Positions 11,669 through 21,683 of a stretch of DNA of 32,000 bases are shown piece by piece. Position numbers and translations under genes: made by a program. Within the stretch, counting starts at the first letter, position 1, and every line of letters begins with the position of its first letter. The notes beneath the pieces were generated by a model, which saw only the letters and a list, made by a program, of their open reading frames with translations, was not told where the DNA came from and made no database searches. Source of the DNA: Delftia acidovorans NBRC 14950 (GTDB lineage: Bacteria > Pseudomonadota > Gammaproteobacteria > Burkholderiales > Burkholderiaceae_C). The stretch spans positions 30,001-62,000 of the forward strand of contig NZ_BCZP01000026.1 in the NCBI RefSeq assembly GCF_001598795.1, read 5' to 3'.

Positions 11669-12688
11669 ATGCAAGACAATCCATCCCAAAGGCCGGACCG
11701 ACGCCGATTCCTGCGCGCTGCGGGCGCGGCATCGCTTGCCGCAGGCCTGCCCTGGGCCACCACAGCCGCCACAGCCACCACACACGACAGCGCCTGGCCC
11801 ACGCGCCCCATCAAATGGGTGGTGCCCTACCTGGCCGGCACCAGCCCCGACACGGCCGCGCGCATCGTGGCCGAGGCGCTGTCGGCCCAGCTGGGCCAGC
11901 CCGTGGTGATAGACAACCGCGCCGGCGCGGGCGGCAACATCGGCGCACGCCAGGTAGCCAAGGCGCCGGCGGACGGCTACACCCTGCTGTACTCGGGCTC
12001 GCCCATGGCCGCCGCCATGCGCATGTACAAAAGTCCGGGTTACGACGTGTTCAAGGACTTCCGCCATGTGCTGGGCATGTCGCGCTCGGACATCCTGGTC
12101 GTCGTGCATGCCGACTCGGGCATGCGCACGCTGGACGACCTGGCAGCGCGGGCGAGGGCCAGGCCAGGGGCGCTGGACTATGCCTCGGGCGGCGTGGGCA
12201 CGCCATCGCACCTGGGCGTGGAGATGCTGGCCTCCAGCATGGGCCTGCAGGTCAACCATGTGCCCTACAAGGGCGCGTCGGAGCTGGTCAATGCCGTGCT
12301 GGGCCAGCAGGTGGCCTTCGGCGCGCCGCTGTTTTCCGTCGCCTATCCCCAGGTGCTGGCGGGCAAGCTGGTGCCGCTGGCCATTGCCGGTCCCCAGCGC
12401 AACGCCAAGCTGCCCCAGGTGCAGACCCTGGCCGAGCTGGGCGTGCCCGATGTCAACCTCACATCCTGGGGCGGCGTGTCCGTGCCGGCCGCCACGCCCG
12501 AGCCCATCGTCCAGCGGCTGCGCACGGCGCTGGAGGAGGTGCTCAGGCAGCCCAGGGTCATCGCCTTGCTGGAGCAGGAAGGCGGCAAGGTCGCCATCAC
12601 CAGCGCCGACGCCTATGCCAAGGGCTTCGAGCGCGAGATCCAGTTCACCCAGTCCATGATGCAGCGCGTGGGCATACAGCCGATCTAG
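11669..12688 (+). CDS. Bug-family (TctC-like) tripartite tricarboxylate transporter substrate-binding protein
   Basis: AAGGAG SD 8 nt before ATG 11669. Twin-arginine signal RRRFLRAAGAASLAAG. Bug hallmarks PIKWVVPYLAGTSPDTAARIVAEAL, YASGGVGTPSHL and VPYKGA are present. Confidence 0.87.
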   Translation: MQDNPSQRPDRRRFLRAAGAASLAAGLPWATTAATATTHDSAWPTRPIKWVVPYLAGTSPDTAARIVAEALSAQLGQPVVIDNRAGAGGNIGARQVAKAPADGYTLLYSGSPMAAAMRMYKSPGYDVFKDFRHVLGMSRSDILVVVHADSGMRTLDDLAARARARPGALDYASGGVGTPSHLGVEMLASSMGLQVNHVPYKGASELVNAVLGQQVAFGAPLFSVAYPQVLAGKLVPLAIAGPQRNAKLPQVQTLAELGVPDVNLTSWGGVSVPAATPEPIVQRLRTALEEVLRQPRVIALLEQEGGKVAITSADAYAKGFEREIQFTQSMMQRVGIQPI

Positions 12689-12782: not shown

Positions 12783-14846
12783 ATGATCAGCCTTCGCAAC
12801 ATTACCCTGCGCCGCGGCACCCGCGTGCTGCTGGACAGCACCTCCGTCTCCATCAACCCCGGTGAAAAAGTCGGCCTTGTCGGACGCAATGGCGCCGGCA
12901 AGTCCAGCCTGTTCGCCCTGCTCAACGGCAGCCTGGCCGAGGACGGTGGAGAGTTCTCCATCCCTTCGCAATGGCGCCTGGGCCAGGTCGCGCAGAACAT
13001 GCCCGAGACCTCGGAGACGGCCACCCAGTTCGTGCTGGACGGCGACACCCGCCTGAGCGAGCTCAACGCCCAGCTCGCGGCCGCCGAGGCCAGCGAGGAC
13101 GGCATGGCCATCGCCCACGCCCACGTGGACCTGGCCGACGCCGGCGCGCACGACGCCGTGCCGCGCGCCCAGGCCCTGATCCTGGGCCTGGGCTTCAAGG
13201 TCTCCGAGCTGGAGCACCCCGTCAACAGCTTCTCCGGCGGCTGGCGCATGCGCCTGCAGCTGGCGCGCGCACTGATGTGCCCCTCCGACCTGCTCCTGCT
13301 GGACGAGCCCACCAACCACTTGGACCTGGACGCCCTGGTCTGGCTGGAAGCCTGGCTCAAGCGCTACCCCGGCACCCTGGTCGTGATCAGCCATGACCGC
13401 GAATTCCTGGACGCCATCACCAACACCACGCTGCACATCGAAAACGCGCAGGTCACGCGCTATGGCGGCAACTACAGCAAGTTCGAGGAACTGCGCGCCC
13501 AGCAGATCCTGCTGCAGCAGGCCTCGTTCGAGCGCCAGCAGGACAAGATCGCCCACCTGCAGAAGTTCATCGACCGCTTCAAGGCCAAGGCCTCCAAGGC
13601 CAAGCAGGCGCAAAGCCGCGTCAAGCAGATCGAGCGCATGGAAAAGGTCGCACCCATGCTGGCCAGCGCCGATTTCACCTTCGAGTTCAAGCCGCCGGCC
13701 AACCTGCCCAACCCCATGCTGGCGATCACGGACGCCGCATTCGGCTACCTGGACGACGAAGGCCAGGCGACCACCATCCTGCGCGGCGTCAACCGCTCGG
13801 TGCTGGCGGGCCAGCGCATCGGCATCCTGGGCGCCAACGGCCAGGGCAAGTCCACCCTGGTCAAGACCATTGCGCGCGAGATGAAGGCCCTGGCCGGCAC
13901 CGTGACCGAAGGCAAGGGCCTGAACATCGGCTACTTCGCCCAGCAGGAACTGGACGTGCTGCGCCCCGGCGAGAACCCCATGGAGCACATGATCCGCCTG
14001 GCACGGGACACCGGCGCCACCGGCCCGCAGGCCCGCGAGCAGGACCTGCGCAGCTACCTGGGCACGTTCAACTTCAGCGGCGACATGGTCAAGCAGGCCG
14101 TGGGCAGCATGAGCGGCGGCGAAAAGGCCCGCCTGGTGCTGGCCATGATCGTCTGGCAGCGCCCCAACCTGCTGCTGCTGGACGAGCCCACCAACCACCT
14201 GGACCTGGCCACGCGCGAGGCCCTGGCCATGGCCATCAACGACTTCGACGGCACCGTCATGCTGGTCAGCCACGACCGCGCGCTGCTGCGCTCGGTCTGC
14301 GAGGACTTCTGGCTGGTCGGCCGTGGCGTGGTCGGCCCCTTCGACGGCGACCTGGACGACTACCAGCGCTACCTGCTGGAAGAATCCCGCCGCCTGCGCG
14401 AGGAGGCCCGCAAGGCCGAACAGGCGGCTGCGGCCACCAGCAAGGCGGCAGCGCAGGTGGAGCCTGCAGCACATGCAGCACCTGCAGTGCAGGCCCCCGC
14501 GACTGCTGCGCTGGCCCCGGCCCCCGCTGCCCCGTCCACGCCGCCGGCCGCCAGTGCCGGAGACCAGCGCGAGCAACGGCGCCTGGCGGCCCTGGCCCGC
14601 CAGCAGATGGCCGAGAAGACCCGGCCGTTCAAGAAGGAACTGGAACAGCTGGACAAGCGCCTGCCCCAGCTGCAGGCCGAGCGCACGCGGCTCGAAGGCC
14701 TGCTGAGCCAGCCCATCTCGCCCGCCGACATGGCCGAGACGGGCCGCAGCCTCAAGGCCTGCAACGACGAGATCGACAGCCTGGAAGAGCGCTGGCTGGA
14801 ACTGAGCGAGCAGATCGAGCAGCTGTCGGCCGCGATCTCCGACTGA
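12783..14846 (+). CDS. ABC-F family ATPase (YheS-like, no membrane domain)
   Basis: Two ABC cassettes: Walker A GRNGAGKSS and GANGQGKST, signatures FSGGWRMRLQLA and MSGGEKARLVLA, and LLLLDEPTNHLD twice. No TM segments. An Ala/Pro-rich linker is followed by a coiled-coil tail. Confidence 0.92.
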   Translation: MISLRNITLRRGTRVLLDSTSVSINPGEKVGLVGRNGAGKSSLFALLNGSLAEDGGEFSIPSQWRLGQVAQNMPETSETATQFVLDGDTRLSELNAQLAAAEASEDGMAIAHAHVDLADAGAHDAVPRAQALILGLGFKVSELEHPVNSFSGGWRMRLQLARALMCPSDLLLLDEPTNHLDLDALVWLEAWLKRYPGTLVVISHDREFLDAITNTTLHIENAQVTRYGGNYSKFEELRAQQILLQQASFERQQDKIAHLQKFIDRFKAKASKAKQAQSRVKQIERMEKVAPMLASADFTFEFKPPANLPNPMLAITDAAFGYLDDEGQATTILRGVNRSVLAGQRIGILGANGQGKSTLVKTIAREMKALAGTVTEGKGLNIGYFAQQELDVLRPGENPMEHMIRLARDTGATGPQAREQDLRSYLGTFNFSGDMVKQAVGSMSGGEKARLVLAMIVWQRPNLLLLDEPTNHLDLATREALAMAINDFDGTVMLVSHDRALLRSVCEDFWLVGRGVVGPFDGDLDDYQRYLLEESRRLREEARKAEQAAAATSKAAAQVEPAAHAAPAVQAPATAALAPAPAAPSTPPAASAGDQREQRRLAALARQQMAEKTRPFKKELEQLDKRLPQLQAERTRLEGLLSQPISPADMAETGRSLKACNDEIDSLEERWLELSEQIEQLSAAISD

Positions 14847-15032: not shown

Positions 15033-15094
15033 TGAATGAAAGATTTCATTCTTAAAAAATAATGAATGAAAGAGACCATTCACTTTCATTCATT
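15033..15094. promoter_or_regulatory. pair of operator-like inverted repeats sharing the half-site GAATGAAAG, in an AT-rich island at the rpiR 5' end
   Basis: IR1 is GAATGAAA-GA-TTTCATTC (15034-15051). IR2 is AATGAATGAAAG-N10-CTTTCATTCATT (15061-15094). The direct 11-mer TGAATGAAAGA occurs at 15033 and 15063, 30 bp apart. Confidence 0.45.
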
Positions 15095-16052
15095 CATGGA
15101 ACTCCACCCCCACCCCGCCGTACAGGAACTGCTGCGCGCCAGCGTCGATGGCTCGCCCGCTGTCGCCCGGGTCGGCCGCTGGATGGCCGCGCATCCGGTG
15201 CTGGCCGTCACGCTGAGCGCCGAGGAAGTGGCCAATGCCTGCGGCGGCTCCCTGGCTGCCGTCAACCGCTTCGCCAAGCATGCCGGCTACGAAGGCTTTG
15301 CCGATTTGCGCCTGCACCTGGGCCGCCAGCTGCAGCAGGCCCTGGAACCCGTGAACAAGCTGCGCGCGGCGCATGGGCCCGAAGCCGCCACGGCAGGCGC
15401 TGCGGGCGCCGTGGGCACCATGGGCGCGCAGGCCTTCGGGCATACGCAGCGCAACCTGCAGGCTGCTGCGCAGGCCTGCGACCCCGGCCTGCTCGACCAA
15501 CTGGCCCAGCGCATCTGCCGCGCACGCCGTGTGCTCTTCATGGGGTTTGGCAGCTCCCACCATGTGGCGGCCTTTGGCGCCGACGTGCTGCAACCCTATC
15601 TGCAGCAGGTGGTGGAAGTGACCTCCGCAGGCGGATCGGAACAGGCGGTACGCCGCATGACAGGGCTGACGGAGCAGGACGTGCTGATCGCCATTTCACT
15701 GCCGCGCTACTCGCGCGAAGCCGTCGCGCTGACGGCGCACGCACGCCAGCGGGGCGCCCTGACCATCGCCATCACCGACGAGTCCACGAGTCCGCTGGCC
15801 CGCGAGGCCGACTACACGCTGCTGGCGCCCGCCTCGCATCCCCTGCTGCCTTCATCGCCAATGGCGGCCATGGCCATGGTCGAGGCACTGGCCACCCAGG
15901 TCATCCGCGCCACACCCCAGGCCGTGCGCAGCCTGGTCGAATTGTCCGAGTCGGTACTTCCCTACCTGACTCCGGACGCCGATACCGCTTCGCCGGCGGC
16001 AGGCAAGCCGCAACCCCAGGCCCCTCATCCCGCTGGAAAGGATTCACCATGA
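15066..16052 (+). CDS. RpiR/MurR-family transcriptional regulator (HTH_6 + SIS domain)
   Basis: HTH region LSAEEVANACGGSLAAVNRFAKHAGYEGFADLRLHL. SIS region RRVLFMGFGSSHHVAAFGADVL ... DVLIAISLPRYSREAV ... TIAITDESTSPLA. The start is ambiguous: ATG 15066 lies inside the palindrome, and ATG 15096 (MELHPHP...) is equally possible. Confidence 0.85.
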   Translation: MKETIHFHSFMELHPHPAVQELLRASVDGSPAVARVGRWMAAHPVLAVTLSAEEVANACGGSLAAVNRFAKHAGYEGFADLRLHLGRQLQQALEPVNKLRAAHGPEAATAGAAGAVGTMGAQAFGHTQRNLQAAAQACDPGLLDQLAQRICRARRVLFMGFGSSHHVAAFGADVLQPYLQQVVEVTSAGGSEQAVRRMTGLTEQDVLIAISLPRYSREAVALTAHARQRGALTIAITDESTSPLAREADYTLLAPASHPLLPSSPMAAMAMVEALATQVIRATPQAVRSLVELSESVLPYLTPDADTASPAAGKPQPQAPHPAGKDSP

Positions 16053-17086
16053 ACGCCCCTGCCCGTCTGCGCCTTGCGCTTGCATCGATGGCCGCCCTCT
16101 TCACACTCGCTGCCGCGCCCGCCCACGCTGGCAAGACGCTGGACGGCATCAAGCAGCGCGGCGCCGTGGCCTGCGGCGTGCACACGGGACGCGCAGGCTT
16201 TGCGCTCGCCGACGGCAGCGGCAACTGGTCCGGGCTGGACGTGGATCTGTGCCGTGCCGTGGCTGCAGCCACCCTGGGTGACGCCAGCAAGGTCAAGTTC
16301 ATTCCCACCAGTGGCCAGACACGCATCACGGCGCTGCAGTCCGGCGAGATCGATCTGCTGGCACGCAACACCACCTGGACCTTCACGCGCGACAACGGCC
16401 TGGGCCTGATGTGGGCGGGCATCAATTTCCACGACGGCCAGGGCTTCATGGCCAGGAAGAAGCCCGGCCTGAACAGCGTCAAGCAGCTCTCTGGCGCCAC
16501 CATCTGCGTGATCAGCGGATCCACCACGGAAAAGACCCTGTCGGAGTACTTTCGCGCCCACAAGCTCAACTACAAGGCGGTGGTGTTCGACAACCCCGAA
16601 GCCGCCCTGCAGGCCTTCAGCAGCGGACGCTGCCAGGCCTATACAGGCGACCTTGGCGCCCTGGCCGTGCTGCGCGGCAAGGAACTGGCCAACCCCGACG
16701 ACTACGTGATCCTGCCCGAAGTCATCTCCAAGGAGCCAGCCGGCCCGGCCGTGCGACGCGGTGACGACGAATGGTTCGCCGTCGTGCGCTGGACACTCAA
16801 CGCCATGATCGAGGCCGAGGAACTGGGCATCACCCAGGCCAATGCCGACGAGCTCAAGACCCGCTCCGACAGCATCCAGGTCAAGCGTTTCCTGGGCCAG
16901 AGCGACGACCTGGGCAAGCAGCTGGGGCTGGACAAGGAATGGGCCCTGCGCATCGTCAAGGCCGTGGGCAACTATGGCGAGAGCTATGAGCGCAACCTGG
17001 GCGCCAGGTCGGGCCTGAACGTGCCGCGCGGCAAGAACGCGCTGTTCACCAAGGGCGGCCTGATGATGTCGCCGCCGATGAACTGA
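16049..17086 (+). CDS. amino-acid ABC transporter periplasmic substrate-binding protein (AapJ/BztA-like, general L-amino acid type)
   Basis: GGAAAGGA SD; the ATG overlaps the rpiR stop (ATGA). Signal peptide MNAPARLRLALASMAALFTLAAAPAHA. 345 aa with AapJ-like length and sequence (GVHTGRAGFA..., DLLARNTTWT...). Confidence 0.88.
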   Translation: MNAPARLRLALASMAALFTLAAAPAHAGKTLDGIKQRGAVACGVHTGRAGFALADGSGNWSGLDVDLCRAVAAATLGDASKVKFIPTSGQTRITALQSGEIDLLARNTTWTFTRDNGLGLMWAGINFHDGQGFMARKKPGLNSVKQLSGATICVISGSTTEKTLSEYFRAHKLNYKAVVFDNPEAALQAFSSGRCQAYTGDLGALAVLRGKELANPDDYVILPEVISKEPAGPAVRRGDDEWFAVVRWTLNAMIEAEELGITQANADELKTRSDSIQVKRFLGQSDDLGKQLGLDKEWALRIVKAVGNYGESYERNLGARSGLNVPRGKNALFTKGGLMMSPPMN

Positions 17087-17106
17087 CGCGCCGAAGGCAC
17101 CCTGCC

Positions 17107-18156
17107 ATGAACGCCGCGAACGCCGTGAATGCTGCGAAAGCCGTGAATGCCATCGACGCCGGGGCACGGCAGCCGCCGGCCCCCACCCGGCCACGCTGGG
17201 GCAGGCTGGCCTTGCAGCTCGCCATCGGCTGGCTGCTGATATTGCTGCTGGGCTGGCTGGCGCACAACGCCAGCCGCAACATGGCCGCGCGCGGCATTGC
17301 CGGGGGCTTCGGCTTTCTGGAGCAGACGGCCGGCTTTTCCATCTCCGAAGGGCTGCTGCCCTACGAGCCCGGCGACAGCTACCTGCGTGCAGTCGCGGCC
17401 GGCGTGACCAACACGGTTCGCGCCGCCGTGCCCGCGCTCGCGCTGGCCACCGTGCTGGGCCTGCTGCTGGGCGTGGCCGCCGTGGCAAGGCATCCGCTGC
17501 TGCGCGGCGCCGTGCGCCTCTATGTCGATGTGGCGCGCAACATCCCGCTGCTGGTGCAGGTGCTGCTGTGGTATTTCGCGCTGACTTCGCTGCTGCCCGA
17601 CGTGGACCGCCCTCTGGCCATCGGGCGCCTGGGCTTTCTGAGCAAGGCGGGGCTGGCCCTGCCCGGCCCGGTGTACGACAGCGCGGCTGGCTGGCACTGG
17701 AGCTCTCCGCAACCGGGCATGTTCGGCATCGACGGAGGACTGGCGCTGACGCCTGAATTCCTGGCCCTGGTGGGAGCCCTAGGCCTGTATGCCGCCGCCT
17801 ATTGCGCGGAAATCGTGCGCGCCGGTCTGCAGGCCGTGCCGCGCGGGCAATGGAATGCCGCCTCGGCCCTGGGCATGCGCCGTGGCCAGCAGCTGCGCCT
17901 GGTCGTGCTGCCGCAGGCCCTGCGGGTGATCATTCCGCCCTATACCAACCTGGCGCTCAGCACCATCAAGAACTCCTCGCTGGCCGTGGCCATCGGCTAC
18001 CCCGACGTGGTGATGGTCGCCAACACCGCCATGAGCCAGACCGGCCAGGCCATCGAGTGCGTGACCATCATCGCGGTGGTCTACCTGGCCATCAACCTGC
18101 TGACCTCGCTGGCATTGAATGCCTTCAACCAGCGCAGTGCCTTCATCACAGGCTAG
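17107..18156 (+). CDS. amino-acid ABC transporter permease (AapQ/BztB-like)
   Basis: 349-aa polytopic membrane ORF. His/Glu/Gln/Arg-type permease EAA-like loop AAYCAEIVRAGLQAVPRGQWNAASALGMRRGQQLRLVVLPQALRVIIPPYTN. Confidence 0.88.
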   Translation: MNAANAVNAAKAVNAIDAGARQPPAPTRPRWGRLALQLAIGWLLILLLGWLAHNASRNMAARGIAGGFGFLEQTAGFSISEGLLPYEPGDSYLRAVAAGVTNTVRAAVPALALATVLGLLLGVAAVARHPLLRGAVRLYVDVARNIPLLVQVLLWYFALTSLLPDVDRPLAIGRLGFLSKAGLALPGPVYDSAAGWHWSSPQPGMFGIDGGLALTPEFLALVGALGLYAAAYCAEIVRAGLQAVPRGQWNAASALGMRRGQQLRLVVLPQALRVIIPPYTNLALSTIKNSSLAVAIGYPDVVMVANTAMSQTGQAIECVTIIAVVYLAINLLTSLALNAFNQRSAFITG

Positions 18157-18173
18157 CCGGGAAAGACCTGCCC

Positions 18174-19256
18174 ATGAGTGCCGTACTCCGCGCACCGGCC
18201 CTGCCGGTGGCCCCGCCCCGGGTTCCGCTGGCACAGCGCCTGCGCGCCAGCCTGTTTCCGGATGCGCTCTCCGGGCTCATCACCGCCACGCTGCTGCTGG
18301 CCGCGCTGTGGGCGGGCTGGAAGCTGCTGGCCTGGGGCCTGCTCGACGCCGAAACCGCAGCCAACCCCGACACATGCCGCGCTGCGGCCGGCGCCTGCTG
18401 GGGCGTGGTGCGCGACAAGTACCGTCTGGTGTTCCTGGGGCGCTACCCCATGGCCGAACAGTGGCGCCCCGTCGCCGCCAGCCTGCTGCTGCTGGGCAGC
18501 GTGGGGGTGGCGGCACTGCCGCGCTTCTTCGGCCGCGCCGGCATGGCAATGCTGCTGGCCGGGTTGACCGGCTTTGGCGTGCTGATGGCGGGCGGTGTGG
18601 CCGGCCTGGCACCCGTGCCCAGCGATCTGTGGGGCGGCCTGCCGCTGACCCTGTTCCTTGCCGTGATCGCCTGCCTGGCCGGCGTTCCGCTGGGCATTCT
18701 GCTGGCGCTGGGCCGGCGCTCCAGCCTGCCTTTGCTGCGCGTGCTCTGCACGTTGTTCATCGAAGCGGTGCGCGGCGTGCCCCTGATCACGCTGCTGTTC
18801 TTCGGGGCCTTCGTGCTGCCCATGCTGGTGCCCGCGCAATGGCGGGTGGACCCCATGGTCCGCATCGCCGTCTGCCTGGCGGCCTTCAGCGCCGCCTATC
18901 TTGCCGAGGTGTTTCGCGGCGGGCTGCAGGCCGTGCCCCAGGGCCAGGTCATGGCGGCCCAGGCCATGGGCTTCACCAGGGTGCAGGTGTTGCGCCACGT
19001 GGTCCTGCCGCAGGCACTGCGCGTGACCATCGCGCCCACGGTGAGCAACTTCATCGGCGCGGTGAAGGACACCTCCCTGGTGGCGATCGTGAACATCTAC
19101 GACATCACCGGCTCCCTGAAGATGGCCATGAGCGACCCCCACTGGATTGCGTACTTCGTGGAGATGTACATGGTGGTCTGTGCCGTCTACCTGCTCATCG
19201 GCCTGGGCATCGCCCGCTATGGCCGCTTCCTGGAATCGCGCTACGCACTCCAATGA
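18174..19256 (+). CDS. amino-acid ABC transporter permease (AapM/BztC-like)
   Basis: Start at ATG 18174 (MSAVLRAPAL...). 360-aa membrane protein with loop AAYLAEVFRGGLQAVPQGQVMAAQAMGFTRVQVLRHVVLPQALRVTIAP. Confidence 0.88.
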   Translation: MSAVLRAPALPVAPPRVPLAQRLRASLFPDALSGLITATLLLAALWAGWKLLAWGLLDAETAANPDTCRAAAGACWGVVRDKYRLVFLGRYPMAEQWRPVAASLLLLGSVGVAALPRFFGRAGMAMLLAGLTGFGVLMAGGVAGLAPVPSDLWGGLPLTLFLAVIACLAGVPLGILLALGRRSSLPLLRVLCTLFIEAVRGVPLITLLFFGAFVLPMLVPAQWRVDPMVRIAVCLAAFSAAYLAEVFRGGLQAVPQGQVMAAQAMGFTRVQVLRHVVLPQALRVTIAPTVSNFIGAVKDTSLVAIVNIYDITGSLKMAMSDPHWIAYFVEMYMVVCAVYLLIGLGIARYGRFLESRYALQ

Positions 19257-20227
19257 ACATGTCCCAGAACTTCCGCAAATTTTCCATTGCCGTGCACGGC
19301 GGCGCAGGCACCGTCATCCAGGGCCAGGCCGACGAGGCCCCCTACCACGCCGCGCTGGCCCAGGCGCTGGATGCGGGCGCCGCCCTGCTGCGGCGCGGCG
19401 CCAGCGCGCTGGACGCAGTCCAGGCTGCGTGCCAGTCCCTGGAAGACTGCCCGCTGTTCAATGCCGGGCGCGGCTCCGTCTACACGCGCGACGCGCGCCA
19501 CGAGATGGACGCCGGCCTGATGGACGGCAGCAACCTGCGGGCCGGCGCAGTCGCTTCCGTCAGCCAGGTGCGCAACCCGATTGCGCTGGCACGGCATGTT
19601 CTTGACGACGGCCAGTGCGTCCTCCTGGTCGGCGAAGGGGCGCAGAGGTTTGCCGATGAGCGCGGGCTGGCGCGGATGGATGCAGGCTACTTCGACTCTG
19701 CCGAGCGCCTGGCACAGCTGCGCCGGGTGCAGGCGCAATCCGGCCAGACCGCGCTGCTGGACCACGACGCAAGCGGACTGGCGGCGCACCCTGCTCCGCT
19801 GAACGAGAACGGCAAGATGGGCACGGTCGGCGCCGTGGCGCGCGATGTGCATGGCAACCTGGCCGCCGCGGCATCCACCGGCGGGCTGACCAACAAGCGC
19901 CCCGGGCGCGTGGGCGACACGCCCGTGGTGGGCGCAGGTTTCTACGCCGACAGCACCACCTGCGCCGTGTCGGCCACCGGAACCGGCGAGCATTTCCTGC
20001 GCGCAGCCATCGCGCACGACATCCATGCGCGCATGCGCTACCTGGGGCAAAACCTGGAACTCGCAGCCGACGCCGCAGTGCGGGGCACGCTGACACACAT
20101 CGGTGGCCAGGGCGGCGTGGTGGCCGTGGACAGCCACGGACGCGTGCACTGCCCCTTCAACAGCGCCGGCATGTACCGCGGCTACATCGTGGACGACGCG
20201 CCTGCCGTGACCCTGATTTTTGCCTGA
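19253..20227 (+). CDS. iaaA: isoaspartyl peptidase / L-asparaginase (plant-type, Ntn hydrolase)
   Basis: The ATG overlaps the permease stop (ATGA). Motifs IAVHGGAGT, the autoprocessing/nucleophile site GKMGTVGAVA, and PVVGAGFYAD are present. 324 aa. Confidence 0.88.
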   Translation: MNMSQNFRKFSIAVHGGAGTVIQGQADEAPYHAALAQALDAGAALLRRGASALDAVQAACQSLEDCPLFNAGRGSVYTRDARHEMDAGLMDGSNLRAGAVASVSQVRNPIALARHVLDDGQCVLLVGEGAQRFADERGLARMDAGYFDSAERLAQLRRVQAQSGQTALLDHDASGLAAHPAPLNENGKMGTVGAVARDVHGNLAAAASTGGLTNKRPGRVGDTPVVGAGFYADSTTCAVSATGTGEHFLRAAIAHDIHARMRYLGQNLELAADAAVRGTLTHIGGQGGVVAVDSHGRVHCPFNSAGMYRGYIVDDAPAVTLIFA

Positions 20228-20424
20228 TGGACGTTTTCGCCCCGGGTTGACCTGTGCCCACGCATTGCGGGCAACGAGGCGTAACAGCATCGGCATTGGC
20301 CCGCTACGCCCGTAAGCCTCTGTCAGGAAACGGATTTTTTCTCACCGCGCCAGAAATCTGTCTTCAAACTGACAGATCACCACCTCCGGGCTTGCAATTG
20401 CTTGCGTCCTGGGGCAATCCCTGA

Positions 20425-20451
20425 GTCAACCTGCAGCCACTTGCCCGCGTT
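20425..20451 (+). promoter_or_regulatory. ECF-sigma-like promoter box GTCAACC-N16-CGTT (copy A)
   Basis: GTCAACC at 20425-20431 and CGTT at 20448-20451. The same box with the same spacings recurs at 20648-20674. The AAC(-35)/CGT(-10) geometry is typical of ECF promoters. Confidence 0.4.
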
Positions 20452-20478
20452 GAACACGCAACAAAGGAGTGATTGCAC

Positions 20479-20595
20479 ATGACCGACATCTTTTCCCACA
20501 CCGCCCTGCAGACCCGCTTTGCAGCCGCTGCGCTGGCCCAAGCTGTCTGGCCATGGGATGACCGTGACCGCAAGCGCGCACCCCGCAACGCCTGA
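20479..20595 (+). CDS. small ORF A, 38 aa, unknown function (MTDIFSHTALQTRFAAAALAQAVWPWDDRDRKRAPRNA)
   Basis: AAAGGAG SD 9 nt upstream and GC3 about 70%. The C-terminal motif is shared with small ORF B and differs from it mainly by synonymous substitutions. Confidence 0.5.
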   Translation: MTDIFSHTALQTRFAAAALAQAVWPWDDRDRKRAPRNA

Positions 20596-20647
20596 AAACC
20601 GGGTCACAAAAAAGTTTCGACTTCCTTCGAAAATTTTTTAAAAACCT

Positions 20648-20674
20648 GTCAACCAGCTGAATCTGGCCCGCGTT
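20648..20674 (+). promoter_or_regulatory. ECF-sigma-like promoter box GTCAACC-N16-CGTT (copy B)
   Basis: GTCAACC at 20648-20654 and CGTT at 20671-20674. As in copy A, 27 nt separate CGTT from the ATG. Confidence 0.4.
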
Positions 20675-20701
20675 AAGAGAGCAATACAGGAGAAAGTTTC
20701 C

Positions 20702-20761
20702 ATGCAAACGACTGCCATCATGTCCATCTGGCCCGAAGACGAACGCGATCGCAAGCGCTGA
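20702..20761 (+). CDS. small ORF B, 19 aa, unknown function (MQTTAIMSIWPEDERDRKR)
   Basis: ACAGGAG SD 9 nt upstream. Paralogous to the tail of ORF A (WPxD[DE]RDRKR). A clean terminator follows. Confidence 0.45.
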   Translation: MQTTAIMSIWPEDERDRKR

Positions 20762-20843
20762 GGCGCTGGCTGGCGCACACGGTGCCCCAGTCTCTGACAC
20801 CACCGGTCTGACGGCCTTCCGTGCAGACCACCCTCTTCCACAG

Positions 20844-20870
20844 AACCCGCTTCAGCGGGTTTTGTCATTT
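20844..20870 (+). terminator. intrinsic terminator closing the small-ORF unit
   Basis: AACCCGC-TTCA-GCGGGTT followed by TTGTCATTT. Confidence 0.7.
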
Positions 20871-20896
20871 CTGGGACATTTGCCGCGGGGCTGCCC

Positions 20897-20924
20897 AACA
20901 AAAAAGGAGCCCGAAGGCTCCTTT
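20897..20924 (-). terminator. intrinsic terminator of phaB (pha operon)
   Basis: On the minus strand, AAAGGAGCC-TTCG-GGCTCCTTT is followed by TTTGTTG, giving an uninterrupted T6 run. It lies 22 nt after the phaB stop. Confidence 0.75.
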
Positions 20925-20945
20925 GCAGCGCGAACCCTTGCAGGC

Positions 20946-21683
20946 TCAATGCATGTGCAGGCCACCGTTGACCGAAAAATCGGCGCCGGTGGAATAGCCG
21001 CCTTCCTCCGAGGCCAGCCAGGCGATGATCGAAGCGATCTCGCTGGGCTCGCCCAGGCGCTTGACGGGGATGGTACCCACGATCTTCTCCAGCACGTCGG
21101 GACGGATGGCCTTGACCATGTCGGTGCCGATGTAGCCGGGGCTCACGGTGTTCACGGTCACGCCCTTGGTGGCCATCTCCTGCGCCAGCGCCATGGTGAA
21201 GCCGTGCATGCCCGCCTTGGCGGCCGAGTAATTGGTCTGCCCGGCCTGGCCCTTGGCGCCATTGACCGAGCTGATGTTGATGATGCGGCCCCAGCCCTTT
21301 TCCACCATGTCGCCCACGACCTGCTTGGTCACGTTGAACATGGAGTTGAGGTTGGTCTCGATGACGGCCTGCCAGTCTTCCGGCGTCATCTTGATGAACA
21401 TGCGGTCACGCGTGATGCCGGCATTGTTGACCAGCACATCGATGCTGCCGTGCTCGGCCTTGGTCTTGCTGAAGGCCTCGACGGTGGAAGCCCAGTCGCC
21501 CACATTGCCGACCGATGCATGGAAGTTGTATCCCAGCGCCTTTTGCTCGTCCAGCCACTTCTGGAAGTCGCGCGACGGACCGCAACCTGCGATGACCTTG
21601 AAGCCTTCCTTGTGCAGACGCTGGCAGATAGCCGTTCCGATGCCTCCCATTCCCCCTGTGACATACGCTACTTTTTGAGCCAT
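20946..21683 (-). CDS. phaB: acetoacetyl-CoA reductase (NADPH-dependent SDR)
   Basis: 245 aa. Motifs MAQKVAYVTGGMGGIGTAICQRL, NNAGITRD and the catalytic YSAAKAG are present. GGAGAG SD. Last gene of the phaCAB arrangement. Confidence 0.95.
   Translation of the reverse strand: MAQKVAYVTGGMGGIGTAICQRLHKEGFKVIAGCGPSRDFQKWLDEQKALGYNFHASVGNVGDWASTVEAFSKTKAEHGSIDVLVNNAGITRDRMFIKMTPEDWQAVIETNLNSMFNVTKQVVGDMVEKGWGRIINISSVNGAKGQAGQTNYSAAKAGMHGFTMALAQEMATKGVTVNTVSPGYIGTDMVKAIRPDVLEKIVGTIPVKRLGEPSEIASIIAWLASEEGGYSTGADFSVNGGLHMH

Follow-up and report, generated by a model that had tools for sequence, protein, structure and literature searches.

Probable micropeptide genes behind paired ECF-type promoters in Delftia acidovorans belong to a previously undescribed Comamonadaceae family

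We analysed a stretch of 32,000 nucleotides from the genome of Delftia acidovorans NBRC 14950 (assembly GCF_001598795.1, contig NZ_BCZP01000026.1, positions 30,001 to 62,000), which we call the window and in whose coordinates positions are given unless another locus is named. The subject of this analysis is the 718-bp gap (20228 to 20945) between a beta-aspartyl-peptidase gene, which ends at 20227, and phaB (20946-21683, minus strand). Reading positions 20100-21100, we found that a promoter-like box GTCAACC-N16-CGTT (equivalently GTCAAC-N17-CGTT), a Shine-Dalgarno sequence 9 nt upstream of an ATG, and a short peptide motif, W-P-x-D-[E/D]-R-D-R-K-R, each occur twice. We consider it likely that these are two tandem, independently promoted micropeptide genes, monocistronic, translated, and dependent on a sigma factor of the extracytoplasmic function (ECF) type. 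The family to which they belong is previously undescribed and seems restricted to a clade of the Comamonadaceae.

Both units lie on the plus strand. The first begins with promoter A (20425-20451), which consists of a -35 element GTCAAC at 20425-20430 (GTCAACC, 20425-20431), a 17-bp spacer and a -10 element CGTT at 20448-20451. The predicted transcription start is a CA at 20459-20460, 8-9 nt after CGTT, placed there from the family logo described below (logo positions +33/+34; C 85%, A 92%). It is followed by the Shine-Dalgarno sequence AAAGGAG (20463-20469), 9 nt upstream of the ATG at 20479, and by open reading frame (ORF) A, the long paralog (20479-20595), which would encode the 38 amino acids MTDIFSHTALQTRFAAAALAQAVWPWDDRDRKRAPRNA and has its motif codons at 20548-20577. 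A weak hairpin, TTTCGA...TCGAAA followed by T6 (20615-20639, -4.1 kcal/mol), is a possible leaky terminator of this unit. Promoter B then spans 20648-20674, with GTCAAC at 20648-20653 (GTCAACC, 20648-20654), a 17-bp spacer and CGTT at 20671-20674; its predicted start, again placed from the family logo, is the CA at 20682-20683, and its Shine-Dalgarno sequence ACAGGAG (20686-20692) stands 9 nt upstream of the ATG at 20702. ORF B, the short paralog (20702-20761), would encode the 19 amino acids MQTTAIMSIWPEDERDRKR, with motif codons at 20729-20758 and a stop directly after RKR. The unit is closed by a predicted intrinsic terminator at 20840-20870, an inverted repeat of -11.7 kcal/mol with its stem at 20840-20865 (ACAGAACCCGCT/AGCGGGTTTTGT) and T's behind it. 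The terminator of the convergent phaB (20903-20924, minus strand) lies outside the unit.

A repeat search pairs the two promoters as 45-nt blocks of 71% identity and the two motifs as 32-nt blocks of 75% identity. With up to one mismatch allowed, the box is matched three times in the window, twice exactly, against 0.28 matches expected by chance; the back-translated motif, with up to two mismatches, is matched twice against an expectation of 0.00. The pair of box and motif is not due to chance. The coordinates, strings, internal spacings, ORF lengths and length of the gap given in a preliminary description of this DNA all agreed with the window when it was read again.

Most relatives of these ORFs would be too short for gene callers, and we therefore scanned genomes, one per species, with the degenerate codon pattern TGGCCNNNNGAYGANCGNGAYCGNAARCG, which requires the motif and returned at least 120 stretches. 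The motif was present in at least 120 loci, all but two of them in Comamonadaceae or in metagenome-assembled genomes (MAGs) with the same locus. The two exceptions come from a Planctomycetaceae MAG and from an unclassified bin; both are parts of longer frames and have neither ATG nor box. By our estimate, two such matches are about the number expected by chance from the information content of the pattern. At least 15 genera are represented, namely Acidovorax, Paracidovorax, Paenacidovorax, Comamonas, Delftia, Simplicispira, Giesbergeria, Diaphorobacter, Alicycliphilus, Melaminivora, Xylophilus, Curvibacter, Corticibacter, Allofranklinella and Verminephrobacter. Variovorax, Polaromonas, Hydrogenophaga and similar genera were not among the matches listed (at least 120), and this distribution suggests a family limited to a sub-clade of the Comamonadaceae.

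Translation of 145 family ORFs gave a typical form, MNTTAILSA-WPEDERDRKR-APARF, of 24 amino acids. Exactly this length is found in 73 of the 145, within a range from 15 (MNTCIWPEDERDRKR) to about 42 amino acids. In each peptide a short N-terminal segment, variable in sequence and made of small or hydrophobic residues, comes first, and the motif begins 5 to about 27 residues from the N-terminus. This segment is followed by a net-neutral charged block, W-P-[E/D/W]-D-[E/D]-R-D-R-K-R, and then by either a stop or [A/S]-P-x-R-[F/C/L]; in about 70% of the ORFs the stop is at +45 nt, and in about 15% it comes directly after RKR. The box precedes 128 of the 145 ORFs, as GTCAAC-N17-CGTT in 125 and with N16 in three, and the modal distances from Shine-Dalgarno sequence to ATG (9 nt) and from CGTT to ATG (27 nt) are those of the window itself. 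A strong terminator (-8 kcal/mol or stronger, no more than 160 nt from the stop) follows 84 of 148 family instances, typically as AAAAAACCCCGC-loop-GCGGGGTTTTTT, which is bidirectional in form.

The number of copies differs among genera. Acidovorax has one; in Delftia and the Comamonas testosteroni group a long and a short copy stand in tandem, as in the window; and C. aquatica, C. jiangduensis and C. avium have three tandem copies. ORFs near-identical to ORF B occur in Delftia tsuruhatensis and the C. testosteroni group, always 3' of the long paralog. An Acidovorax MAG (L019:4056-4178) carries an in-frame tandem duplication of 16 codons, which places two motifs in one ORF (MNTTTKLSAWPDDERDRKRAPMLAAWPDDERDRKRAPARF). 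A contig labelled 'Pantoea sp. 18069' (L117, NZ_CACSJA010000005.1) has a locus of the Comamonadaceae type (ABC-F gene, small ORF, phaBAC) with the peptide MNMTAHTSAWPEDERDRKRAPARC; this assembly is probably mislabelled or contaminated.

Protein collections hold little of this family. A search of 5.8 billion proteins with the 40-amino-acid, TTG-start version of ORF A returned only four relatives, Delftia-like 'hypothetical proteins' of 41-64 amino acids (P0001-P0004) that are 89-97% identical to ORF A by BLASTP and whose tails diverge after RDRKR. In the assembly collection, gene calls for exactly the ORF A protein are present in 102 blocks. Pfam-A, NCBIfam 20, PADLOC and the PDB sequences gave no match to the peptides at E values up to 10, no paper was found in a literature search with the peptide string, and a literature search on Acidovorax small RNAs (sRNAs) returned nothing relevant. 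A type I toxin was considered as well and rejected, the segment before the Trp being only about 9 residues long and the remainder a net-neutral charged block rather than a hydrophobic, membrane-spanning one.

We compared the neighbourhoods of all fetched loci by clustering their flanking ORFs. The small ORFs usually lie between a gene for a YheS-like ABC-F ATPase and phaB: of about 110 loci, 78 have the ABC-F gene directly upstream on the same strand, and in 86 loci the convergent phaB is next downstream, with phaA and phaC beyond it. The ABC-F gene of the window is found at 12783-14846 on the plus strand (NF007921/PRK10636, 702 bits), and the one-mismatch copy of the box, GTCAACC-N16-CGTG, lies at 12452-12478, about 300 nt upstream of its start codon. 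In Delftia, as judged against other genera, an insertion of about 5 kb (about 15066-20227) sets the ABC-F gene apart from the small ORFs; it carries an RpiR/MurR-type regulator, an amino-acid ABC transporter (permeases) and the beta-aspartyl peptidase, and D. tsuruhatensis (L045) shares this arrangement. At about a quarter of the loci other genes take the place of the ABC-F gene, among them thiD/thiO/thiG, a ChaC-like gene and genes that resemble mntP and a DUF808 gene, named by eye from their sequences. Some genomes carry copies of the small ORF at two loci. Given these varied neighbours and second loci, we regard the unit as autonomous; the earlier suggestion that the unit stands alone, with a terminator of its own and without a partner enzyme, likewise holds in most genomes.

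The second-locus copies in five Comamonas spp. (L034, L068, L089, L094 and L106) adjoin genes that look by eye like the thiamine-biosynthesis genes thiD, thiO, thiS and thiG. The Acinetobacter sRNA gene sabS, discussed below, lies about 0.6-1.5 kb downstream of a gene for a ThiO-like FAD oxidase, with one or two genes between (L129, L132). This shared proximity to thiamine genes is probably a coincidence.

A logo of 131 aligned upstream regions shows a T-tract from -19 to -12 (T at 60-84% over logo positions -18 to -12), followed by (C)TGTCAAC(G/C), (G)CGTTG(T) and a CA 8-9 nt later, and it continues with AGGAG, a T-rich spacer and the ATG. The aligned instances were selected for TCAAC-N17-CGT, so the core boxes are invariant by construction; a G precedes TCAAC in 131 of 131. 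We infer that the conserved CA is the transcription start. Within the window, promoter A lacks the upstream T-tract typical of most family members and promoter B has one at 20634-20639. The T run of the hairpin at 20615-20639 overlaps this tract and may double as the tail of a leaky terminator and an UP-like element; in another locus (L025) the T-tail of the ABC-F terminator has the same double role.

These boxes correspond to a known promoter class. A 2026 transcription-start map of Cupriavidus metallidurans gives the ECF-Hub consensus for ECF37, the group of the sigma factor RpoR (operon rpoR-rsrA-rsrB), as -35 GTCAAC and -10 CGTTAT, and no other ECF family tabulated there has the -35 element GTCAAC (PMC13492112, Table 4). 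In Acinetobacter baumannii, saturation mutagenesis of the SigAb promoter defined a -35 element GTCAAC, a 17-bp spacer whose shortening to 16 bp had little effect, a -10 element CGTT and a contributing T-tract/UP element (PMC12153292). The direct targets of SigAb by chromatin immunoprecipitation sequencing are sigAb, relA and the sRNA SabS, which gives the strongest signal, and knock-downs of SigAb and of SabS are sensitive to copper and nickel (PMC12153292). The PsabS sequence in the supplement of that study, attttttttcatttttcTGTCAACCaatcctgatctcttgaCGTTatatagggt, is laid out like the Comamonadaceae promoters; PsabS loci from metagenomes show T-tracts followed by TGTCAACC-N16-CGTT, and T- or A-tracts are seen in both PsigAb and PsabS. 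The Comamonadaceae family has the same -35 GTCAAC and -10 CGTT at a 17-bp spacer (16 tolerated), with the upstream T-tract. The preliminary description had read the boxes as ECF-type promoters, and the match to the published ECF37 consensus and to the SigAb promoter, spacer included, bears this out at the level of sequence: judged in this way, both promoters of the window are of the ECF37/SigAb class. A promoter weight matrix run over about 1 Mb of flanking DNA found no strong additional site except upstream of further copies of the ORF, and a sigma-70 promoter scan of both strands of 20000-21200 found none.

We next consider whether the conserved product is the peptide or the RNA. The search pattern fixed most of the amino acids, and the analysis was therefore directed at the positions it left free. 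Wobble positions within the motif vary: the Pro codon is CCC in 103 instances, CCT in 32, CCA in 6 and CCG in 1, Asp6 is GAC in 73 and GAT in 69, and Arg5 is CGC in 109 and CGT in 32. The same is seen outside the search pattern, where entropies at codon positions 1/2/3 are 0.66/0.23/1.77 bits for the tail Pro and 1.08/1.01/1.83 bits for the Ala before it. Across the family the start, the Shine-Dalgarno spacing, the frame and the stop are conserved, and substitutions concentrate at synonymous sites. RNAalifold on 35 diverse transcripts gave next to no shared structure (-3.3 kcal/mol; covariation term -0.08), and the 3' untranslated regions have nothing in common beyond the terminator and the end of phaB, their sequence, length and stop-to-terminator distance all varying. 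At the gathering threshold, Rfam 15 has no match in the whole window; the best sub-threshold match at 20150-21000 is rsmX, with 18.2 bits against a cutoff of 56. As wobble positions vary while amino acids are fixed, and as neither the 3' untranslated region nor any RNA structure is conserved, these comparisons indicate that the peptide, or the act of translating it, is preserved by selection. The preliminary description had taken the two ORFs for paralogous mini-genes with selection on the peptide, and the 145 related ORFs, which keep frame, start, stop and amino acids, agree with it; a locus in which the nucleotide block is kept and the frames are broken, named there as the pattern of an RNA element, was not seen in any that we fetched.

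A cognate sigma factor was sought through homologs of SigAb. Those of about 40% identity form 501 clusters at E values up to 1e-10 in a search of a representative library, and in five beta-proteobacterial loci (Ralstonia, a Usitatibacter-like MAG, two Rhodocyclaceae-like contigs and one unassigned contig) the sigma gene heads an operon with DUF3619, DUF3106 (or an unassigned small ORF) and RDD genes, between ilvIHC and lptFG. AabB of Acinetobacter is presumably the DUF3106-like partner. A literature search on DUF3619/DUF3106 came back empty.

An exact GTCAAC-N17-CGTT occurs inside the sigma ORF in all five of these ECF37-type sigma genes (L170:3440-3466, L177:6533-6559, L178:10506-10532, L179:10422-10448 and L180:10668-10694), about 100-190 nt before the sigma stop and just upstream of the DUF3619 anti-sigma gene. 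It arises from the region-4 codons of P-x-RQREAF(L/M)(L/M)RYW, spelled CGT CAA CG. ... CGT TAC; CGT is a minority Arg codon (10% in comparable high-GC genes), and the five sigma loci have a GC content of 57-68%. The Acinetobacter sigAb gene has GTCAAC-N17-CGTG in the same place (L124:8559-8585). The box within the ORF may act as a sigma-dependent promoter for the anti-sigma genes and so close a feedback loop, or it may be a coincidence.

Several results weigh against the interpretation of the window units as ECF-dependent micropeptide genes. On the side of the promoter, these concern the sigma factor. A phmmer search with SigAb recovered only Acinetobacter; look-ups among the SigAb clusters named Steroidobacteraceae, Rhodocyclaceae, Usitatibacter and Dechloromonas and no Comamonadaceae; a sigma profile search gave Ralstonia, Cupriavidus, Zoogloea and Dechloromonas, again with no Comamonadaceae. 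By tblastn only a Ralstonia megaplasmid was found among plasmids, and SigAb had no match in the 32-kb window or in L001-L120. Moreover, GTCAAC-N17-CGTT was absent upstream of the sigma gene in the five beta-proteobacterial ECF37 loci, and rpoR of C. metallidurans is reported to have an RpoD-type promoter (PMC13492112). On the side of the peptide, retrieval required the motif, so that genomes with diverged motifs fell outside the sample and part of the invariance stems from the way the collection was made. Synonymous codons are also skewed: the motif Glu is GAA in 98% and 88% at its two positions, against 49% in neighbouring genes, and the motif Pro is CCG in 1 of 142, against 36%. Such skew implies some constraint on nucleotides or on translation kinetics beyond a pure free-peptide model.

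A skew is found just behind the motif as well, where GCA and GCT together make up 67% of the codons for the next residue, Ala, against 18% in neighbouring genes. The codon usage seen family-wide, and in the window at 20548-20577 and 20729-20758, suggests a constraint from translation kinetics, mRNA structure or a function at the RNA level. Very efficient translation or an unstructured mRNA would fit it, at least in part.

The peptide might instead act in cis as a nascent chain, its hard-to-translate or arresting sequence (Trp-Pro, an acidic run, a basic run and R-A-P) reporting on, or being rescued by, the upstream YheS-like ABC-F protein, with no role for the free peptide. We think this improbable. 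The W-x8-R-A-P of the family loosely resembles the W-x7-R-A-G-P of SecM, and an invariant 10-residue stretch together with non-neutral codons (GAA, avoidance of CCG) is what would be expected if decoding kinetics or contacts with the exit tunnel mattered. The frequent ABC-F neighbour points the same way: ribosomes arrested on SecM are released by YheS in E. coli, and other ABC-F paralogs act against the destabilisation of ribosomes by poly-acidic nascent chains and against stalling at poly-basic ones (PMC11162784), activities that make a link to translation conceivable. The arrest peptides of the RAPP/SecM class, with which YheS is connected, share with the family a short ORF and an invariant C-proximal stretch with Trp, Arg and Ala-Pro (PMC10951233, PMC12992588, PMC11162784). 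But R-A/G-P-P occurs in 0 of 146 tails and 22 ORFs stop directly after RKR, the motif varies in its distance from the N-terminus and in copy number and stands twice in one ORF, and the ABC-F neighbour is missing from about a quarter of the loci. Where it is present, the small ORF lies downstream of it behind a promoter of its own. No co-directional gene that could be regulated follows, phaB being convergent and the terminator lying 3' of the ORF, and the stop-to-terminator distance is variable with no conserved alternative hairpins. A RAPP/SecM-type arrest peptide was accordingly rejected, as no tail of the 146 starts with APP or GPP and no co-transcribed target gene lies downstream; a leader peptide or attenuator was rejected on the absence of conserved structure, the varying 3' untranslated region and the lack of a co-directional downstream operon at most loci.

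It seems about equally doubtful that the transcript is mainly a regulatory sRNA of the SabS or sigma-E type, or a dual-function RNA, whose nucleotides pair with target mRNAs and in which the ORF is secondary. The promoter class and the stand-alone, terminator-ended layout are those of SabS, ECF regulons often have sRNAs at their core (PMC12153292, discussion), synonymous sites depart from neutrality, and there is an rsmX-like match, though far below threshold. Set against this, conservation follows codon periodicity and keeps the ATG, the Shine-Dalgarno spacing and the position of the stop, there is neither conserved structure nor covariation, only the terminator is shared 3' of the stop, no Rfam family reaches threshold, and SabS has neither a sequence resemblance nor such an ORF. 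Even less credit is due to a reading of the boxes as half-sites of an operator for a dimeric factor (CAAC-N18-GTTG, a 4-bp inverted repeat) at a gene transcribed by the housekeeping sigma factor, or of TGTCAA/TTGACA as the -35 element of a divergent sigma-70 promoter. In the logo CAAC and GTTG do read as reverse complements, and TGTCAA is TTGACA on the minus strand, but the symmetry covers 4 bp only, nothing across the axis answers to the invariant G at -1 or the T at 0, and the sigma-70 scan was empty on both strands. The boxes moreover keep a fixed distance from the conserved CA, the Shine-Dalgarno sequence and the ATG, as promoters do, and the same hexamer, tetramer, 17-bp spacer and T-tract were shown to be an ECF promoter in Acinetobacter (PMC12153292).

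We therefore return to the interpretation as ECF-dependent micropeptide genes and propose the following course of events. Under an inducing stress, which would be the one that activates the sigma factor (metal stress in Acinetobacter), a sigma factor of the ECF37/SigAb/RpoR type would direct RNA polymerase to GTCAAC-N17-CGTT. Transcription would start about 8 nt after CGTT and end at the intrinsic terminator, and the RNA, about 150-250 nt long, would have a 5' leader (about 19 nt), a strong Shine-Dalgarno sequence and an ORF of 15-42 codons. The peptide, produced in large amounts, would be the functional product, and its W-P-(acidic)-(basic)-A-P block may form a short salt-bridged helix, acidic at its N-terminal and basic at its C-terminal end and bracketed by prolines; an AlphaFold 2 model of ORF A has one helix, residues 5-33, which ends at the last residue of the motif, at a weak mean confidence (pLDDT 71), and is consistent with a helix in the motif block. 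This helix may bind a conserved cytoplasmic partner, and the peptide would then be an output of the sigma-dependent stress response, holding the place in the regulon that SabS holds in Acinetobacter.

In any specific target of the peptide we have far less confidence than in the micropeptide genes themselves. As a tentative suggestion, which we think more probably wrong than right, the main direct ECF37-type output of this clade could be a peptide of about 24 residues whose WPEDERDRKR helix binds a universally conserved machine and reprogrammes translation or transcription under metal or envelope stress; it would be the peptide counterpart of SabS, amplified to two or three tandem copies in Comamonas and Delftia. 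Candidates for this machine would be RNA polymerase, the ribosome together with its YheS-type ABC-F partner, and the sigma factor with its anti-sigma factor.

The nearest known system in layout is SabS of A. baumannii, likewise a stand-alone intergenic unit with T-tracts, (C)TGTCAAC(C), a 17-bp spacer, CGTT and a short terminator-ended transcript (PMC12153292). Unlike the family described here, its transcript of about 170 nt is non-coding and has conserved motifs of its own, its loci (e.g. L121, L123, L129) have no Shine-Dalgarno sequence, ATG or WPxDxRDRKR ORF and no sequence similarity, and its context is hemB ... sbcDC. Because SabS lacks the ORF and stands in an unrelated neighbourhood, we reject homology with the micropeptide RNAs and keep the analogy. 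The ECF37 regulons, RpoR-RsrA-RsrB of C. metallidurans and SigAb-AabA-AabB, share the promoter consensus GTCAAC/CGTT(AT) with the family (PMC13492112, Table 4), and the beta-proteobacterial sigma operon (sigma, DUF3619, DUF3106 and RDD genes, next to ilvIHC) is widespread. They differ in that no micropeptide gene was found described among their targets in the literature searched. As stress-induced proteins of fewer than 50 amino acids that are made from monocistronic or sRNA-sized transcripts under a dedicated stress regulator and were missed by annotation, MntS, MgtS and SgrT offer a further comparison. The Comamonadaceae micropeptides resemble them in the sRNA-sized transcript, in a product below 50 amino acids and in escaping annotation; their sequence is unrelated, they are not hydrophobic or membrane-spanning, their core is far more conserved, and the regulator is a putative ECF sigma factor instead of a repressor or two-component system.

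Micropeptide genes under stress regulation are a known kind of element, and so are small transcripts driven by ECF sigma factors; what is new is a micropeptide family in the place of the conserved target of such promoters, its 10-residue core unvaried in every instance retrieved across a bacterial family. Genes for peptides of fewer than 30 residues escape annotation, and here a whole family was hidden in the intergenic DNA of Acidovorax, Comamonas and Delftia, common bacteria that include environmental, plant-pathogenic and opportunistic species. For the poorly understood ECF37/SigAb class of sigma factors, the family offers a clean and testable target outside Acinetobacter. With SabS it also makes a natural pair for comparing peptide and sRNA outputs behind one type of promoter. 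The promoter together with its micro-ORF makes a compact and portable reporter for this stress response, and the consistent placement of the unit beside the gene for a YheS-type translation factor raises a testable link to ribosome rescue.

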